A DNA stretch of 64,000 bases from a virus. The stretch is from IMG/VR virus record IMGVR_UViG_3300046832_000578. One strand, 5' to 3'. Each line of letters starts with the position of its first letter. Position 1 is the first letter of the stretch. The notes beneath the pieces were generated by a model, which made no database searches, had not been told where the DNA came from, and saw only the letters and a list, made by a program, of their open reading frames with translations. The position numbers and the translations under genes are program-made. Shown one piece after another: positions 20,175-64,000 of this stretch.

Positions 20175-21134
20175 ATGGCTGTTTCTACAAGAGATGGATT
20201 AAAACAATACGCACTTCGTAATTTGGGTGCACCAGTTGTTGAAATTAATGTGGATGACGATCAATTAGAAGATCGTATTGATGAAGCATTAGAGCACTGG
20301 ATAAAATATCATTACGAGGGCACTGAACAGATTTATATGAAAGCACAGATTCGTGCTTCTGAAATTGTTTTAACCTCCTCAGTTGCTGCTAACTTTACAT
20401 TGTCTGAAACTATTACAGGTGGAACATCAGGTGCCACTGCACAAGTAACAAAAGAAACAGGTCGTTCTTCTTCTGGAACTTTACTTCTTGTTAGAAACAT
20501 TGTCGGAACATTTACGGTTGGTGAAGTAATTACTGGTGCAACATCTGGTCAAACTGCCACAACTTCCACTATCACAAAAAGAGAATACGATAATAAGTAC
20601 ATTACAGTAACTGATTCAGTATATGGTGTGACTAAAATTTTAGCCATAGGTCAGGCATCGTCATCTAAGAACATATTTGATTTACAATATCAATTGCGTC
20701 TGAATGACCTATATGACTTAACATCTACCTCTATCATTTATTACAAAACTGTAATGAGCCATTTGGCTCTACTTGATTTAGAGTTAAATGGTCATACTCT
20801 TTTTAGATTTAATCGTAGAACAAATAGAATTTATCTAGACATTAACTGGGAAACAGATATCCCTCTTGGTGATTATGTTATCGTTCAAGGATACCGTGCT
20901 TTAGATCCAACTGAATTTACAAAAGTTTATAACGAATCATTTTTAAAACATTATGTTACTGCATTATTTAAAAGACAGTGGGCTACAAATATTAAAAAGT
21001 TTTCTGGCATTCAACTTCCAGGTGGTGTCACATTAGATGGTGATAAACTATACGATGAAGCAGTTAATGAGATTAAAGAACTAGAGGATAGTTTACAAAA
21101 TAAGTCTGCACCATTAGACTTTTTTATAGGTTAA
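20175..21134 (+). CDS. gp13: Neck protein gp13
   Basis: LKQYALRNLGAPVVEINVDDDQLEDRIDEAL...KRQWATNIKKFSGIQLPGGVTLDG; synteny with gp14 and gp15. Confidence 0.93.
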   Translation: MAVSTRDGLKQYALRNLGAPVVEINVDDDQLEDRIDEALEHWIKYHYEGTEQIYMKAQIRASEIVLTSSVAANFTLSETITGGTSGATAQVTKETGRSSSGTLLLVRNIVGTFTVGEVITGATSGQTATTSTITKREYDNKYITVTDSVYGVTKILAIGQASSSKNIFDLQYQLRLNDLYDLTSTSIIYYKTVMSHLALLDLELNGHTLFRFNRRTNRIYLDINWETDIPLGDYVIVQGYRALDPTEFTKVYNESFLKHYVTALFKRQWATNIKKFSGIQLPGGVTLDGDKLYDEAVNEIKELEDSLQNKSAPLDFFIG

Positions 21135-36667: not shown

Positions 36668-37228
36668 ATGGCTCAATACGTAAACAACGCTGATTTTCTT
36701 GCAGCTATCTCAGAGTATCGACTGAAAGTTCAACACGCTAAAGAAAACAATTTACCGAAACCACAAATTAGTAATTATATCGGTGAGTGTATTCTAAAAA
36801 TAGCAACCCATCTTTCTTATAAACCAAATTTTATAAACTACTCGTATCGTGATGATATGATTAGCGATGGTATTGAAAATTGCATTCAGTATATTGATAA
36901 CTTCGATCCCTCAAAATCTAACAATCCATTTGCTTATTTCACCCAAATTATATGGTATGCTTTTCTTCGCAGGATTGCCAAAGAAAAGAAGCAGAGTTAT
37001 ATTAAAGGTAAGTTGATTCAAGATATGCCATTTGAGATGTTTGAAGTCCAAGAGGGTGATGATAAAGATTATCATAATGCATATATGGATTTTATGCAAC
37101 AGAATCATACTTTCGATGATACATTTATAGAACGCAAAAAAGCGAAGAAAAAGAAACAAACGAATTTAGATGACTTTATAGGTGAAGATGATGACAGTGA
37201 GCAGATCGATAAGAGACTTGATTCGTGA
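36668..37228 (+). CDS. gp55: Late transcription sigma factor gp55
   Basis: YVNNADFL, YIGECILKIATHLSYKPNFINYSYRDDMISDGIENC.QY..NFDP.KS.NPFAYFTQI...AFLRRI.KEKKQ; C-terminal LDDF. Confidence 0.96.
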   Translation: MAQYVNNADFLAAISEYRLKVQHAKENNLPKPQISNYIGECILKIATHLSYKPNFINYSYRDDMISDGIENCIQYIDNFDPSKSNNPFAYFTQIIWYAFLRRIAKEKKQSYIKGKLIQDMPFEMFEVQEGDDKDYHNAYMDFMQQNHTFDDTFIERKKAKKKKQTNLDDFIGEDDDSEQIDKRLDS

Positions 37229-46591: not shown

Positions 46592-47251
46592 ATGAAACTT
46601 AGTAAAGAAACTGTATCGCTAATTAAGAATTTCGCAGGAATCAATTCGAACCTGCTTCTTAAGAGTGGTAATAAACTAGCAACAATCAGTGCACAGAAGA
46701 ATGTGATGGCTGATGCAACTATCACGGAGACATTCCCTGACTTTGGCATCTACGATCTCAATGAGTTCTTGGGTGCGATGTCTTTGTTTGACGATCCTGA
46801 ACTTGAGTTTGCAGAGAAATTTGTCTCAATCAAACAAGGTAACATGAACATTAAGTTCTTTGCTGCAGACCCAACTGTGCTAACTGCTCCACAAAAAGCA
46901 ATTACATTCCCTGAAGCAGAAATTAACTTTAGTATGTCTGCGAATATGTTAAGTATGATTAACAAAACAGCATCTGTTCTTCGTGCAGCAGATGTGGCAA
47001 TCGTTGGTGATGGTTCAACAATCACTGCAGTGGTTGGAGATAAAAAGAATGCAACAGGAAACTCTTACAGTGAACCTGTTGGAACTACTGACAAAACTTT
47101 TAAGGTAAACTTAAAGGTTGAAAACCTAAAGATGCTTCCAGGAGATTATGAAGTATCAATTTCAAGTAAAAAGATTTCTCGTTTTAAATCTCCGAGCAGT
47201 GACTTGGTTTATTATGTAGCAGTGGAAGCAGATTCTACATTTGAGTTTTAA
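46592..47251 (+). CDS. gp45: Sliding clamp gp45
   Basis: MKLSKET..LIKNFAGIN, FGIYDLNEFL, ENLKMLPGDY.V.IS, YYVAVE. Confidence 0.95.
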   Translation: MKLSKETVSLIKNFAGINSNLLLKSGNKLATISAQKNVMADATITETFPDFGIYDLNEFLGAMSLFDDPELEFAEKFVSIKQGNMNIKFFAADPTVLTAPQKAITFPEAEINFSMSANMLSMINKTASVLRAADVAIVGDGSTITAVVGDKKNATGNSYSEPVGTTDKTFKVNLKVENLKMLPGDYEVSISSKKISRFKSPSSDLVYYVAVEADSTFEF

Positions 47252-55864: not shown

Positions 55865-56433
55865 TGTTTATGTTTGATGTAGAAACGCTGGGAGTAGAAT
55901 CAACTTGTGTGATTCTCTCTGCAGCTATGGTTCATTTTGATCCAGAAAAGCGACCAACATATCAAGACTTGTTGGACAATTCATGTTTCGTAAAGTTTGA
56001 TGTGAAGGAACAACTACAACTTGGAAGAACATCATCCAAGGGCACACTTGATTGGTGGAAAGGTCAACACGAATATGTTCGTAAGGTTTCTTTGGATCCA
56101 TCTCGTGAAGATATGACTGTCGAAAATGGCTTGAATGCATTCTATAACTACATGAGTAAGTTTGCAAATGCTGATAAACAAACAATGTGGGCACGAGGTT
56201 CACTTGATCAGATGGCGATTGATTCATTGGCAGTTAGAGTTGGCATGCAAGAAATTACAGGGTATAATGTATGGAGAGATGTCAGAACTGCAGTTGATAT
56301 TCTCTACGGCACTACAAATGGATATGTAGATGTAGATCATCCTTTGTTTAAGCGACATGAAGTCATCAAACATCATCCTGTTCACGACTGTGCACTTGAT
56401 GCAATGCAACTAATGTATGGAAAAATAACTTAA
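55864..56433 (+). CDS. DEDDh 3'-5' exonuclease (DexA-like)
   Basis: MFDVETLG, TLDWW..Q, WARG..D, RDVRT, HHPVHDCALD. Confidence 0.85.
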   Translation: MFMFDVETLGVESTCVILSAAMVHFDPEKRPTYQDLLDNSCFVKFDVKEQLQLGRTSSKGTLDWWKGQHEYVRKVSLDPSREDMTVENGLNAFYNYMSKFANADKQTMWARGSLDQMAIDSLAVRVGMQEITGYNVWRDVRTAVDILYGTTNGYVDVDHPLFKRHEVIKHHPVHDCALDAMQLMYGKIT

Positions 56434-58919
56434 TGGAATTTTACACAAGCGTCCATCCACTGGGCGATAAGATACTCGTTAGAGGGTACGATAAAGGAAG
56501 AGCATATCAGCGTAAGGTAGATTTCTACCCTACGCTTTTTGTCACTTCTAAGAAGCAATCTAAGTGGAAGACTTTGGATGATACATATGTTGATGAAGTA
56601 AAACCTGGAACGATTAAAGATACAAGAGAGTTTGTCAAACGCTACGAAGATGTAGAAGGTTTTGCTGTGTATGGTAATACCAATTACGCATATCAATATA
56701 TCAGCGACACTTATCAAGACGATGTCAATTGGGACATGGAACAAATCAAAGTATTCACCATTGACATTGAGACTGCCACTGAGAATGGATTCCCAGATAT
56801 CCGTAGTGCCAATGAAGAGATTCTTCTAATCACAATTAAGAATCTACAAACGAAAAACATTATCACCTTTGGCACTAAGCCATATGAAAACAAACGAGAA
56901 GATTGTCAGTATGTTTATTGTCGTGATGAACAACAACTACTAAAAGAGTTTATCATTTGGTGGCAACAGAACTATCCAGATTGTATCACTGGTTGGAATA
57001 CAGACTTCTTTGATGTGCCATATCTTATCAAACGATTGGACAGAGAACTTGGTGATTCATTCTCCAAGAAAGTTAGTCCATGGGGTTACATCAATGAACG
57101 CAAGACATTCATTAAAGGCAACGAAGAACTTCACTATGACATTCTAGGTATTTCTCAACTAGACTATCTCGAACTTTATAAAAAATATACATATACAAAG
57201 CAGGAGTCTTATCGTCTGGATTATATCGCACAAGAAGAACTTGGTGATAAGAAGAAAGAGAATCCAGGAACAGACTTTAAAGATTTCTATACAAACTATT
57301 GGGATAAGTTTGTTGAATATAACATTCACGATGTGGAGTTAGTTGATCAACTCGAAGACAAGATGCGTTTGATTGAACTGCATCTGACTATGGCATACAA
57401 TGCTAAGATTAATCCTGAAGATGTTTACTCACAAGTTCGTATGTGGGATACTATCATCTACAATCACCTGCGTAAGAAAGGTATTGTTATTCCAGCAAAG
57501 ACTTCTTCAGGTAAAGATGCACAGTTCGAAGGTGCTTTCGTTAAAGATCCAATTATCGGTATGCATAAATGGGTAGCATCCTTTGACTTAAACAGTTTGT
57601 ATCCGCACTTGATTATGCAATACAACATTAGTCCTGAGACCCTGACCAGTGAGAAACTCTCTGTCACAGTTGATAAATTGCTTAATCAAGAAGTGGATAC
57701 ATCTTATATTAAACGAAGAGATCTAACTCTGACTGCAAATGGATGGACATATCGTAAAGACATCAAAGGTTTTATGCCTGAGTTGATGGAGCATATGTAT
57801 GTTAATCGCTCCAAGTTTAAAAAACAGATGTTGAAAGTTGAACAAGAATACCAAAACGATAAGACAAAGGTTCATCTATTAAAAGATATTTCTCGTCTAA
57901 ACAATCTGCAGATGGCGATGAAGATTGCTCTTAACTCTGCTTATGGTGCGATGGGTAATCAATACTTCCGTTACTTTGATATTCGTATGGCTGAAGGTAT
58001 TACCACTTCTGGTCAGTTATCCATTCGTTGGATGGCAAACAAACTCAATGCATTCCTCAACAAAACTCTCAAGACAGAGGGTAAAGATTTCGTCATTGCC
58101 ATTGATACAGATTCGATCTATCTAACATTGGAAGATTTGATTGAGAAGGTTTGTGAAGGTAAAACTACTGAACAGAAAATCAAAACAATGGACAAGATCT
58201 GTGAAGAAGTTTTTCAACCATTTATTGATCAAGGATATGATGAACTTGCTGACTATATGAATGCGTATGGTCAGAAGATGCAAATGAAACGAGAAGTACT
58301 GGCTGACAAAGCAATCTGGACTGCCAAGAAACGATATGTTATTAATGTTCATAATTCGGAAGGAGTGCAATTTGCGAAACCTAAAATCAAAGTTATGGGT
58401 TTGGAGATGGTCAAGTCGTCTACACCTGCGGTTATTCGTGACAAACTTAGGGATTCGTTACAAGTTATTCTTGCTGGCGATCAAAAAGACCTACATACAT
58501 ATGTAACAGCATTTAAGAAAGAGTTCGATAAACTTCCAGTGCATGAAGTAGCATTTCCTCGTGGTGTGAATGGTATGAAACAGTATGCTGGTTCTCCGAT
58601 TTATACAAAGGGAACACCAATTCATGTTCGTGGTGCGTTGCTCTACAATCATCACTGTAAGCGTATGGGACTAGATAAAAAGTATCAACCAATTCGTGAT
58701 GGTGATAAGATTAAGTTTGTTTATGTTCGTACACCAAACCCTCTGCAAGAAGATGTGATTGCTTTTAGTCAGCATCTTCCAAAAGAGTTTGGACTGGAAG
58801 CATACATAGATTATGATAAACAATTTGAAAAAGTATTTCTTGATGCTCTACAGATTGTTATTCAACCACTAGGTTGGAAGACTCAAGAAGAAAGTTCATT
58901 GGAGGATTTCTTTGGCTAA
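56433..58919 (+). CDS. gp43: DNA polymerase, family B (gp43)
   Basis: Exonuclease DIET, GWN..FFD, YN..D; polymerase SFDLNSLYP, KIALNSAYG, IDTDS, KKRY; C-terminal SLEDFFG. Confidence 0.98.
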   Translation: MEFYTSVHPLGDKILVRGYDKGRAYQRKVDFYPTLFVTSKKQSKWKTLDDTYVDEVKPGTIKDTREFVKRYEDVEGFAVYGNTNYAYQYISDTYQDDVNWDMEQIKVFTIDIETATENGFPDIRSANEEILLITIKNLQTKNIITFGTKPYENKREDCQYVYCRDEQQLLKEFIIWWQQNYPDCITGWNTDFFDVPYLIKRLDRELGDSFSKKVSPWGYINERKTFIKGNEELHYDILGISQLDYLELYKKYTYTKQESYRLDYIAQEELGDKKKENPGTDFKDFYTNYWDKFVEYNIHDVELVDQLEDKMRLIELHLTMAYNAKINPEDVYSQVRMWDTIIYNHLRKKGIVIPAKTSSGKDAQFEGAFVKDPIIGMHKWVASFDLNSLYPHLIMQYNISPETLTSEKLSVTVDKLLNQEVDTSYIKRRDLTLTANGWTYRKDIKGFMPELMEHMYVNRSKFKKQMLKVEQEYQNDKTKVHLLKDISRLNNLQMAMKIALNSAYGAMGNQYFRYFDIRMAEGITTSGQLSIRWMANKLNAFLNKTLKTEGKDFVIAIDTDSIYLTLEDLIEKVCEGKTTEQKIKTMDKICEEVFQPFIDQGYDELADYMNAYGQKMQMKREVLADKAIWTAKKRYVINVHNSEGVQFAKPKIKVMGLEMVKSSTPAVIRDKLRDSLQVILAGDQKDLHTYVTAFKKEFDKLPVHEVAFPRGVNGMKQYAGSPIYTKGTPIHVRGALLYNHHCKRMGLDKKYQPIRDGDKIKFVYVRTPNPLQEDVIAFSQHLPKEFGLEAYIDYDKQFEKVFLDALQIVIQPLGWKTQEESSLEDFFG

Positions 58920-59463
58920 TATCAGAGTAATTAAAAAAGGAATAAATGTATCCAAGATACTGAAACAATTACATCAGTATCCAGAGGATTGGGGTGCTCA
59001 GAAAAACATTGATGGTGTAGGAGATCTTGTAGACGATTGCGGATTCCCTGCAGTTGAAGCAGGTGTTCTACAGTTAGTCATGGGAGTTGTCTCATCTAAA
59101 GATCAGTATGTGGGTGATAGTGAGATGTCTGCATCAACACCTGCATATAGTCATCATACAGAAATTATTTCATTCTTAAAGAGACACTTCAAGAAATTTG
59201 ATAGGTGTGGATTCTTATCATTACCCATTGCTGGTGTCGTTGGTCAACATATTGATATTGGATCTTACTATCAAACACGAGATAGATATCATCTTGCAAT
59301 TCAAGGTGCATATGATTATACAGTTGGAGGAGAGACTGTAAGAGTAGAAGAAGGTGACTTGATTTGGTTTGATAATAAACAATCACATGGAACAAAGAAT
59401 GTTGGAGATGCTGTAAGAATTACATTTGTGTTTGATGTTCCGCATGCCAAGAACAATCCATAA
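58912..59463 (+). CDS. Aspartyl/asparaginyl beta-hydroxylase-like 2OG-Fe(II) oxygenase
   Basis: VGQHIDIGSYY...RYHLAI, WFDNKQSHGTKN...RITFVFD. TTG start. Confidence 0.8.
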   Translation: MANIRVIKKGINVSKILKQLHQYPEDWGAQKNIDGVGDLVDDCGFPAVEAGVLQLVMGVVSSKDQYVGDSEMSASTPAYSHHTEIISFLKRHFKKFDRCGFLSLPIAGVVGQHIDIGSYYQTRDRYHLAIQGAYDYTVGGETVRVEEGDLIWFDNKQSHGTKNVGDAVRITFVFDVPHAKNNP

Positions 59464-60830: not shown

Positions 60831-61152
60831 TTTACCCATAATTGTTACAGAAAACAAACACAATGGACTTCAAGCAATTAAATTGACAGAAGGTGCATTT
60901 GAGGGTATAATTTATACCTATGGGAAAGTTAGTATTGATGCAGATGAAGAGAATGATAAGATTCATCTAAAATTTGAATATGAAATTCTTGATTATGCGG
61001 ATAAAGGGTTGACAGACATGAAACCTTTTGAAGCATACATAGGTAAGATACTTGAAGGATTAATCCACGAGGGTGTCGAAGAAAATAATTTAACATACAC
61101 AGGCGGAGTTGATGAGAATAGAACAGAAGATTCTAAGCAATCTGATACATGA
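60820..61152 (+). CDS. Hypothetical protein at the gp40 position
   Basis: G.FEGIIYTYGKV...LKFEYEI; lies between uvsX and gp41. Confidence 0.6.
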   Translation: MKSNLPIIVTENKHNGLQAIKLTEGAFEGIIYTYGKVSIDADEENDKIHLKFEYEILDYADKGLTDMKPFEAYIGKILEGLIHEGVEENNLTYTGGVDENRTEDSKQSDT

Positions 61153-62500
61153 TGAGCATTATTGTCGTAAGGTAATTCCGTTTCTAAAGAAAGAGTATTT
61201 CACAGATCGTAAAGAAGCAATCCTTACAAGTGAGATTGTTTCCTTCTTCACAAAATACAACAAACCTGCAACAAAAGAAATTCTATCTATTGAAGTTGGA
61301 AATAGAAAAGATCTTAATGACAAAGAGTTAGTTGAACTTGCCGATTATATCGGTAGTTTAAATCATGAGCCAGTTAATGAAGACTGGATGCTAGAAAACA
61401 CTGAGAAGTTTTGTAAAGATAGAGCGGTTTATAATGCGATCCTTAATTCAATTAGTATCATCGATGGGCGAGACAAAATTCATACTAAAGATGCGATACC
61501 TAGCATCCTTAGCGATGCACTCGCTGTTTCTTTTGATAATCACATCGGTCATGACTATCTGGATGACCACCTTTCGAGGTTTGATTTTTATCACAGGGTT
61601 GAAGAGAAAATTCCTTTCGACCTTGACATGTTCAACAAAATCACCAAAGGTGGACTCTCAAAGAAAACCTTAAACATCGCACTTGCTGGCACTGGTGTTG
61701 GTAAGTCATTGTTCATGTGTCACATGAGTGCTGGTTGTTTGACACAAGGTAAAAATGTTTTATACATAACTATGGAAATGGCAGAAGAAAGAATCGCTGA
61801 GAGGATTGATGCGAATCTCTTGAACCTTACCATGGATGAATTGAAAGTTATTGATAAGGATATCTTTGAATCTCGTATCGCAAAGATTACAAGTAAGACT
61901 AAAGGTAAACTAATTGTCAAAGAATATCCAACTGCAAGTGCTCACTCTGGGCACTTTCGTGCATTGCTGGAAGAATTAAAACTGAAACGAGACTTTAGAC
62001 CTGATATAATCTTCATTGATTATCTTAACATCTGTGCGAGTCAGCGAATGAAGCAAGGTGGAAGTATTAACTCTTATACATATATTAAGGCAATCGCAGA
62101 AGAGTTGAGAGGTTTGGCAGTAGAGTATAATGTGCCAATCGTTTCAGCAACTCAAACAACTCGTTCTGGGTATACAAATTCAGATCCAGGACTAGAAGAT
62201 ACGAGTGAATCATTTGGTTTGCCAGCGACCGCTGACTTCATGTTTGCTTTGGTCAGCAATGAAGAATTAGAAGCGTTAAATCAAATCCTTGTAAAACAAT
62301 TAAAGAATCGTTACAACGATCCTAGTTTTTACAAACGATTTGTGATTGGAATTGATAGAGCAAAGATGAAATTGTATGACACAGAAGCATCTGCTCAAGT
62401 TAATATAAGTGACTCTGGTCAAGATGATGAGCCAGTGTTTGATAAGAGTAGTTTTGGTCGCAGACAAAAAGCAGAATCATTCGAGGGATTTAAGTTTTAG
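61112..62500 (+). CDS. gp41: Replicative DNA helicase gp41
   Basis: AGTGVGKS, YITMEMAEE.IAERIDAN, IVKEYPT, FIDYLNI, SATQTTR, SESFGLPATAD, KQLKNRY. Confidence 0.96.
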   Translation: MRIEQKILSNLIHDEHYCRKVIPFLKKEYFTDRKEAILTSEIVSFFTKYNKPATKEILSIEVGNRKDLNDKELVELADYIGSLNHEPVNEDWMLENTEKFCKDRAVYNAILNSISIIDGRDKIHTKDAIPSILSDALAVSFDNHIGHDYLDDHLSRFDFYHRVEEKIPFDLDMFNKITKGGLSKKTLNIALAGTGVGKSLFMCHMSAGCLTQGKNVLYITMEMAEERIAERIDANLLNLTMDELKVIDKDIFESRIAKITSKTKGKLIVKEYPTASAHSGHFRALLEELKLKRDFRPDIIFIDYLNICASQRMKQGGSINSYTYIKAIAEELRGLAVEYNVPIVSATQTTRSGYTNSDPGLEDTSESFGLPATADFMFALVSNEELEALNQILVKQLKNRYNDPSFYKRFVIGIDRAKMKLYDTEASAQVNISDSGQDDEPVFDKSSFGRRQKAESFEGFKF

Positions 62501-62509
62501 GAGAAAGAT

Positions 62510-63823
62510 ATGGTAAAAGTTATTGTAGCAAAACAGAAACATGATATGACTCATATGTTGGGACAGTTCCCTGATGAGTCGCATTATGATCATCTTATCG
62601 AGGAAGATACAGATGTATACATGCCAGAGATTCCAGGACATCCAGAGATGACATTCTCTGAAGAGAGGATTGTTCTGAAGTTTCGTAAGAATTATTTTAC
62701 AAAAGAACAACAAGACCAAGCATACATTGGACTTCGTGAAGCTGCAACTGAGACGCAGAATCGTGGACTTGCAGCTGGACCAAGAGCAGAGAAGTTAGGT
62801 AATCGTGAATGGGTCACTGAGTATGAATATGACATCGTTGATTACTTCAGTAATCCCAAAGCCAATCTATTTGGTGAAGATCCAATTGAAGCAATTCGTC
62901 AGGCACATAAGAACAAGAAGCCATCTCCGTCTAATCGTAATAATGTTTGGGGTATTTCTACTGTAAAGAAAGACAACTTCGTCTTTGAAGACTGGGTTGA
63001 AGCAACAAGAAAACTTTCTGAGAATGAAATGCGTGCAGAAGCAAAACGAGTTGCTGAGAAATATATCTGTGCAACAACCTATGCCAATGGTGTGTTCTCT
63101 GGTATTGCTGGATGGTTCGATCGTTATCCTCGCATTCCTTATGGTCGTGCAACATCTTATACTGCGAATCATCCAGACAAATTTGCTATGGCGTATCCAT
63201 TCCTACAGCAACTTGCACAGGGTTTTAAAGATCTGTTGCCATGGAGATATGGTAATCAGATGGAAGCAGCAAATAAAATGGATCCTCGTTTCTTAGTTCC
63301 AGAAACTCCATTCACTACTGTCACTGTGAATAGATCTTTTAGAACTGCGTGTCACTTTGATGCAGGTGACCTAACTTCTGGTCTATCAAATCTACTGACA
63401 TTATCAAACAATGGTAATTATCGTGGTTGCCATCTTGTTGCACCAGAGTATCGTGTCGCAGTAAATCCCAGACCTGGAGATCTACTTTTGATTAACAATC
63501 ATGAAGTAATGCATGGTAATACTCAGATTGAATTGCTTGATGATGTGGCAGAGAGAATTTCATTGGTTGTGTACTTCCGTGAGAAGATGCTTGAGTTAGG
63601 ATCTAAAGAGTATGAAGATTGTCGTTTTGACTTTGTTGAATCTCGCAGACTTAATAAAGAACATCCAGAACAACGACCATTGTGGAATGGTGTATCACCA
63701 TCAATGTGGGATTCTAAAGAATGGTTTGATTATCTAGAATCAAAACTAGGTACAGAAGTATTGAACAAGTATCATCCACCAAAGACTACAACTGTTAATG
63801 CACTCGAGGAGTTCTTCGGATAA
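62510..63823 (+). CDS. TET/JBP-family 2OG-Fe(II) DNA base dioxygenase
   Basis: PFTTVTVNRSFRTACHFDAGD (HxD), G.HLVAPEYRVAVN.RPGDLLL...HEVMHGNT (distal H), ERISLVVYFREKM (2OG-binding R); C-terminal LEEFFG. Confidence 0.85.
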   Translation: MVKVIVAKQKHDMTHMLGQFPDESHYDHLIEEDTDVYMPEIPGHPEMTFSEERIVLKFRKNYFTKEQQDQAYIGLREAATETQNRGLAAGPRAEKLGNREWVTEYEYDIVDYFSNPKANLFGEDPIEAIRQAHKNKKPSPSNRNNVWGISTVKKDNFVFEDWVEATRKLSENEMRAEAKRVAEKYICATTYANGVFSGIAGWFDRYPRIPYGRATSYTANHPDKFAMAYPFLQQLAQGFKDLLPWRYGNQMEAANKMDPRFLVPETPFTTVTVNRSFRTACHFDAGDLTSGLSNLLTLSNNGNYRGCHLVAPEYRVAVNPRPGDLLLINNHEVMHGNTQIELLDDVAERISLVVYFREKMLELGSKEYEDCRFDFVESRRLNKEHPEQRPLWNGVSPSMWDSKEWFDYLESKLGTEVLNKYHPPKTTTVNALEEFFG

Positions 63824-64000
63824 TGTGTGCCGTAATTGGAACAATCATTCAGAATCCTTCAACAAAGGATTTTGAAAATCTACTTCGTGTATTCCATGAG
63901 TCTAAGATTCGTGGAATGCATGCTACAGGAATCTCATATGTTAAGCATGGTAAAATCCATACTGAGAAACACCCAGTGCCAGCTAATAATTTTCCTTTTG
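63823..64000 (+). CDS. Class II (Ntn) glutamine amidotransferase-like protein, 3'-truncated by the window edge
   Basis: Not in the ORF track. MCAVIG...ESKIRGMHATGISY: Cys2 nucleophile and RG..A.G motif; start overlaps the TET/JBP stop (TAATG). Confidence 0.75.
   Translation, partial: MCAVIGTIIQNPSTKDFENLLRVFHESKIRGMHATGISYVKHGKIHTEKHPVPANNFPF

Follow-up and report, generated by a model that had tools for sequence, protein, structure and literature searches.

Why should an enzyme that oxidises DNA bases end in nearly the same peptide as the DNA polymerase of the same phage? This question is raised by a TET/JBP-like gene in the window, by which we mean the whole 64,000-nucleotide stretch of DNA, from an uncultured T4-like phage, analysed here. 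The original prediction was that the enzyme rides the gp45 sliding clamp by means of this peptide, so that nascent phage DNA is modified at the fork and host DNA is spared. As judged from sequence comparisons and gene content, we regard it as probable that the TET enzyme oxidises thymine in polymeric DNA, that its tail docks on gp45, and that modification is thereby held at or behind the replication fork.

The product of the gene is a TET/JBP-family Fe(II)/2-oxoglutarate dioxygenase. PF12851 (Tet_JBP) matched residues 228–358 with 88.2 bits against a Pfam cut-off of 34.9, and a profile of the TET family matched TET2 chains in the PDB at 5e-08. In an alignment of 50 TET sequences sharing 30–86% identity, the HxD...H triad and the basic 2-oxoglutarate residue (H282, D284, H335 and R349) are all invariant. 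The AF2 model has a pLDDT of 91.9 and possesses the double-stranded beta-helix fold of the DNA-acting TET type, with TET2-DNA, CcTet, CMD1 and NgTET1 as its best Foldseek matches (E values from 4e-11 to 2e-08). The family assignment of the original prediction is thus borne out by the profile score, the four invariant residues and a fold like that of TET2, NgTET1 and CcTet; the gene also lies where it had been placed, directly after the gp41 helicase, its start being 9 nt past the helicase end. More than 2,500 TET relatives were found at E <= 1e-10 in environmental data, many of them on contigs of 150–170 kb. Homologues in cultured phages, namely the T4-like Stenotrophomonas phage DLP6, Caulobacter phage Cr30 and phage C48C1, are wrongly annotated as 'SNF2 DNA repair protein'.

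Table 1. Features of the window that bear on the TET enzyme and its proposed docking partner.
Feature	Coordinates	Strand	Remarks
gp55 late sigma factor	36668..37228	+	phrog_234
gp45 sliding clamp, proposed docking partner	46592..47251	+	phrog_223 3e-72, PF09116
gp43 DNA polymerase	56433..58919	+	ends ...QEESSLEDFFG
gp41 DnaB-type replicative helicase	61109..62500	+	directly upstream of TET
TET/JBP-family (5mYOX) Fe(II)/2OG dioxygenase	62510..63823	+	437 aa; PF12851, AF2, Foldseek
Tet_JBP catalytic domain	63191..63583	+	residues 228–358, Pfam match
Iron ligands H282 and D284	63353..63361	+	invariant, 50-sequence alignment
Iron ligand H335	63512..63514	+	invariant, 50-sequence alignment
Putative 2OG-binding R349	63554..63556	+	invariant, 50-sequence alignment
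Variable disordered linker	63776..63799	+	residues 423–430; low pLDDT, high column entropy
C-terminal peptide ALEEFFG, putative gp45-binding motif	63800..63820	+	residues 431–437; predicted helix 431–436
Class II glutamine amidotransferase (GATase) start, MCAVIG...	63823..64000	+	runs off window 177 nt in

The GATase gene is the first gene 3′ of TET in a hypermodification operon. TET is missing from the nearest record, the fragment G001, and the comparisons used contig L007 together with four complete relatives with terminal repeats (G002–G005). L007 encodes an identical TET and shares 97.7% identity over the DNA that it has in common with the end of the window. Its gene order is TET, GATase (231 aa), GNAT acetyltransferase (213 aa), AADT of PF18724 (339 aa), a 131-aa protein and a P-loop kinase of PF18751 (202 aa); the profile scores are 45.7 bits for PF18751 and 70.9 bits for PF18724, and both genes lie beyond the window's end. 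L007 therefore co-encodes a kinase and an AADT with a putative source of 5hmU (TET), the combination by which a hypermodification cluster is recognised. Such a kinase and AADT are the known machinery that turns 5hmU in DNA into hypermodified thymidines (PMC13229309, PMC6449724).

The gene content also bears on the substrate, for which both T and 5mC had been named. In G002–G005, no C5-cytosine methyltransferase, no ThyA-family enzyme (hydroxymethylase) and no ParB (ParB_N) match was found, and no ParB was present among the TET neighbours in the window or in L007. In view of these absences thymine rather than 5mC is the likely substrate, and TET acting on polymer thymine would be the sole visible source of 5hmU. 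Of the two named bases, 5mC is unlikely given the lack of a C5-methyltransferase in the four genomes.

The proposed docking partner is a genuine gp45 clamp: it matched the T4 gp45 structure 1CZD with an E value of 3e-27, and its matches to the T4 and RB69 gp45 structures are full-length. In T4, the hydrophobic-acidic C-terminal tails of gp43, gp55 and gp33 are gp45-binding epitopes and are interchangeable (Geiduschek and Kassavetis review, PMC2988020). The last eight residues of gp43 in the window, SSLEDFFG (58893..58916), are the counterpart of the clamp-binding tail KASLDFLFG of T4 gp43. The gp55 motif, TNLDDFIG (residues 165–172, 37160..37183), is followed by an acidic tail, EDDDSEQ..., as is the motif of T4 gp55 (PSLDFLYEAND). 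A gp33 gene was not found in the 64,000-nt window and was found in the relatives by PF16805; gp33 of the window's lineage has an abbreviated motif at its end, KLEDV or QLDI/V, in which the FF pair is lacking. The window's own ligase has no loop of the T4-ligase type EPEGLDFLFD.

The TET protein itself terminates in ...TTTVNALEEFFG, and the end of the 437-residue protein is also given as ...HPPKTTTVNALEEFFG. Its last seven residues stand beside SLEDFFG of gp43 and NLDDFIG of gp55, all at the positions from which the shared tail had originally been read. When every + strand ORF of at least 60 aa in the window was scanned, the motif turned up four times, in gp43, TET, gp55 and one 319-aa structural protein, and in each case at the C-terminus or close to it. 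Conservation of the tail among homologues had been named as a test of the prediction, and it was passed strongly: 201 of the 210 distinct long-type TET homologues end in L-x-x-Ar-Ar followed by 0–2 residues, and in five further ones Ile or Val replaces Leu. Across the 201 homologues the column entropy is 0–1.4 bits within the motif and 2.3–2.9 bits in the preceding six or seven linker residues.

The same peptide is found on other modification enzymes. In 80 related IMG/VR loci the motif was present on gp43 (36/36, SLEDFFG-like), on 79 TETs, on GNAT (35/35, PSLEEFL.) and on AADT (41/41, GLE.F.), while more than 20 other neighbouring gene families of these loci had no motif, with the exception of thioredoxin. 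The thioredoxin tail LLEFLKG forms the last helix of the fold and was discarded as a false positive. In L007 the tails are PSLEEFLV for GNAT and GLEIFA for AADT, and the AADT model consists of a core, a low-confidence coil (residues 316–333) and a terminal helix (334–338). The kinase carries at best a degenerate version (LExxFxx), and no tail was seen on GATase. In an independent T4-like contig, L208, gp33 ends in NLDAF, TET in HLDEFF and a downstream TAGT glycosyltransferase in DLSDFF; gp33 is an established clamp ligand in T4 (PMC2988020). Taken together, the peptide occurs on three or four unrelated folds (DSBH, GNAT, AADT and GT), in T4-like phages only. Its presence on TET and on later enzymes of the pathway suggests that the modification pathway works while riding the replication clamp.

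Two further gene arrangements were noted among these contigs. The L208 TET lies between two TAGT-family glycosyltransferases and a sugar nucleotidyltransferase (L208:5350–9490), a gene set that points to a glycosylated, base J-like 5hmU which would be made on the clamp. A natural fusion of a TET domain to a PF18751-type P-loop kinase (P0239, at L094:1259–3235) ends in DLSEMFG.

The distribution of the tail among phage TETs was then compared with that of the clamp. None of the 76 short TETs (~300 aa) of small-phage contigs has the tail; these proteins (L122–L201) share a basic C-terminal segment, ...CGSxxEELERAKxRKRGxPL, instead, probably the same extension that has been described at the C-terminus of the ParB-dependent subclass. 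The short TET of Pelagibacter phage HTVC112P adjoins a ParB gene. Synechococcus phage S-CBWM1 encodes a long-type TET without the tail, and no gp45 homologue was detected in its complete genome. DLP6, C48C1 and Cr30 all encode gp45. The TET of DLP6 ends in TLGDFFV (gp43 tail TLDSFFA) and that of C48C1 in SLEEFFV (gp43 tail TLEDFFG); for Cr30 the ends are GATLF and DLSSLFD, and this short match is the weakest. The gp45 comparison covered S-CBWM1, DLP6, C48C1 and Cr30; the contigs of P0146, P0165, P0133 and P0239 are too short to include replisome genes. Within these bounds the tail appears to be restricted to clamp-encoding phages and to track the presence of gp45. In L203, a different myovirus lineage, TET, AADT and kinase are all without the tail, which indicates that the peptide is an add-on and not part of the folds.

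The TETs of C48C1, DLP6 and a related contig (L003:8375–9385; L001:4274–5965; L202:3635–5194) adjoin genes for UDP-galactopyranose mutase or a sugar nucleotidyltransferase, not AADT and kinase. Sugar genes in place of AADT and kinase suggest different end-products after the same clamp-tailed TET.

Could the tail serve something other than recruitment to gp45? One alternative is that it binds another common partner, such as a replisome or scaffold protein or the host beta clamp, and so assembles the polymerase and the modification enzymes. Short hydrophobic-acidic motifs of this class are generic for clamp-type and other peptide-in-groove contacts, and the gp43 and TET tails of Cr30 resemble bacterial beta-clamp motifs. 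However, the gp43 tail has the position and nearly the sequence of the gp45-binding tail of T4 and RB69 (PMC2988020), gp55 and gp33 in these phages bear related tails, and the tail follows gp45 from genome to genome. We therefore consider another partner unlikely.

A second alternative is that no recruitment is involved, and that the tail either serves contacts within the enzyme or its oligomerisation or has arisen by chance convergence. That AF2 predicts a short helix for it, and that similar ends occur on thioredoxin (as part of the fold) and on two virion proteins, would be in keeping with such a role. The virion proteins are the 319-aa protein (PLDFFIG) and a T4_baseplate-family protein of G005 (LEGLDSFF), and they set a background of ~1% for mere resemblance. 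The structural model of TET argues otherwise: the folded body extends to about residue 422, pLDDT falls below 50 at residues 427–430, and the short helix (431–436) that follows this disordered linker of variable length is not packed against the core, just as in the AADT model. Moreover, TET, AADT and kinase homologues of other lineages fold without the tail, and unrelated folds share it in T4-like phages only. When all predicted proteins of the complete relatives G002 (260 proteins) and G005 (233) were ranked by how closely their C-termini resemble the gp43 tail, TET ranked first and GNAT second in both, i.e. TET was first among ~250. Chance resemblance was rejected on the strength of this ranking and of the family-wide conservation, and the alternative as a whole is, in our estimation, very improbable.

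The third alternative holds that the conservation reflects a constraint on the nucleotides or a C-terminal degron that times the enzyme level. The GATase ATG overlaps the TET stop codon (ATAATG, in the region 63800..63826), and in the window the L-E-E codons of the tail contain a Shine-Dalgarno sequence, GAGGAG, 12 nt before that ATG, so that TET and GATase are probably translationally coupled. This alternative can hardly be credited, since the invariant Leu of the tail uses all six Leu codons, Phe is a mixture of TTT and TTC and the Glu codons vary as freely, which shows selection on the peptide and not on an embedded ribosome-binding site, since the tail is kept where the downstream genes differ, and since gp43 would have to share the degron. 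A role as the Shine-Dalgarno sequence of the next gene was rejected by this codon analysis. To our knowledge, no known degron resembles the TET tail.

We return to docking of TET on the clamp, which is favoured by the confinement of the tail to gp45-encoding phages, by the disordered linker and by the recurrence of the peptide on pathway enzymes; on the basis of these comparisons we infer that TET binds gp45. Several observations speak against it. The gp33 tails of the window's own lineage are short and lack the FF pair, the GATLF end of Cr30 TET is a weak match, and GATase has no tail. The kinase, which is also expected to act on DNA, has a degenerate tail at best, and the two virion proteins with similar ends supply the background given above.

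The mechanism that we propose is as follows. After replication, TET would oxidise thymine in phage DNA to 5-hydroxymethyluracil, and this would be the first step of the thymidine hypermodification encoded downstream by GATase, GNAT, AADT and a P-loop kinase like the 5hmU DNA kinases. The last seven residues of TET would act as a short linear motif on a flexible linker, copying the peptide of gp43, gp55 and gp33 for the hydrophobic pocket of gp45. As the tail copies the gp43-type clamp peptide, TET would be retained by clamps at or behind the fork, i.e. by those loaded at the fork and left on the DNA. AADT and GNAT would be held by the other two subunits of the clamp, or in turn, and in another lineage the glycosyltransferase would be held likewise. 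The thymines of new phage DNA could then be oxidised and elaborated at once and processively, and modification would be confined to DNA that carries a loaded phage clamp. By analogy, gp45 would serve TET as the DNA-clamping partner ParB serves the ParB-dependent T-dioxygenases. Quick and complete modification of nascent DNA, with less exposure to host nucleases, may be a benefit at least as likely as the sparing of host DNA that was first envisaged. In its widest form, the proposal is that the whole post-replicative thymidine-hypermodification line of T4-like phages is tethered to gp45 as a tool-belt, with TET, AADT and GNAT here and a glycosyltransferase and a TET-kinase fusion elsewhere; to this we lean slightly.

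Compared with the gp43, gp55 and gp33 epitopes of T4 (SLDFLFG, SLDFLY), the TET tail is likewise short, hydrophobic-acidic and borne on a variable linker at the C-terminus or close to it, whereas its carrier is a base-modifying dioxygenase and not a polymerase or transcription factor. A closer parallel in method is T4 ligase, whose loop EPEGLDFLFD was spotted by similarity to the gp43 tail and binds gp45 with a Kd of ~11 uM (2018, PMC6212786); each clamp subunit takes up one peptide, which lies in the hydrophobic pocket as an amphipathic helix (PMC6212786). The TET tail was likewise found by gp43-tail similarity, and like the flexible, helical ligase loop the TET and AADT tails are given a short helix by AF2. 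The ligase motif is internal and experimentally verified, whereas that of TET is terminal and predicted from sequence.

A DNA-modifying enzyme on this clamp has a precedent in T4 alpha-glucosyltransferase, which co-purifies with gp45 (Sommer 2004; confirmed in PMC13216743). As is proposed for TET, this enzyme of a T4-type phage modifies DNA after replication and associates with the clamp. In contrast to TET, it has no gp43-like tail, and the 5hmC on which it acts is made before replication; the tail seen here is explicit and sits on the enzyme that would start the pathway.

The phage T-dioxygenases described by O'Toole et al. (2026, PMC13229309) belong to the same superfamily, have no C5-methyltransferase neighbour and are linked to GATase, P-loop kinase and AADT. 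For the ParB-dependent ones, the DNA-clamping partner is a requirement on dsDNA only (PMC13229309). Members of that class have a cognate ParB gene and a short basic C-terminal extension, and the window TET has neither: no ParB occurs in the complete relatives, ~220 extra residues are present at the N-terminus, the tail is acidic-hydrophobic and not basic, and the proposed partner is the replication clamp. In 5-HMUDK plus aGPT-Pplase/AADT hypermodification (Lee et al. 2018, as cited in PMC6449724 and PMC13229309), a PF18751 kinase and a PF18724 AADT are co-encoded, as here. Phages M6, ViI and phiW-14 acquire 5hmU via the nucleotide pool; in contrast, a ThyA-type hydroxymethylase is lacking here and TET would make 5hmU on the polymer.

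Eukaryotes couple a DNA-modifying or repair enzyme to the clamp by a short peptide in DNMT1-PCNA (PIP box) and ALKBH2-PCNA (APIM), and the coupling proposed here would be a parallel to DNMT1-PCNA as well as to the ParB requirement of the small-phage T-dioxygenases. The proteins and clamps of the eukaryotic pairs are unrelated to those of the phage, and their role is maintenance methylation or repair rather than hypermodification.

The enzyme family, the downstream machinery and the gp45-binding peptides are each known, and it is their combination that is new; a full-text literature search found no proposal of a clamp-binding motif on phage TETs or other hypermodification enzymes. Why phages modify their DNA after replication and not by the nucleotide-pool route of the T-even phages has been called a mystery (PMC13229309), and post-replicative modification leaves new phage DNA briefly unprotected. 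A clamp peptide on the pathway enzymes would offer a concrete answer: the tool-belt to which polymerase, ligase and late-transcription factors attach would also link modification to replication. If this is true, docking on gp45 would add a third way of activating phage T-dioxygenases to the stand-alone and the ParB-dependent modes, and the list of gp45 clients would extend to base-modifying enzymes. A need for the clamp could also account for the inactivity of some ParB-less phage TETs when expressed alone in E. coli, and the addition of clamp and loader would be a practical remedy in heterologous assays of inactive phage TETs.

Some minor observations concern neighbouring genes. The 319-aa virion protein (20175..21134, + strand) has PHROG neck/fibre matches and ends in SAPLDFFIG, a tail that is kept in G005 (97956..98915), and the G005 protein ending in LEGLDSFF is a T4_baseplate protein (PF12322). 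These virion-protein tails may be chance, a structural element or a hint of a clamp link to virion or packaging proteins. A cupin/AspH-like oxygenase gene (58912..59463, + strand) overlaps the gp43 end, and in L007 an additional 2OG-Fe(II) oxygenase gene (PF13759, L007:6336–6953), missing from the window, is inserted after it; both sit inside the replication module. The last eight residues of gp41 form a conserved peptide of their own, SF[ED]GFKF, in 75 related loci, and this may be a docking motif for another partner, e.g. the primase or the helicase loader.
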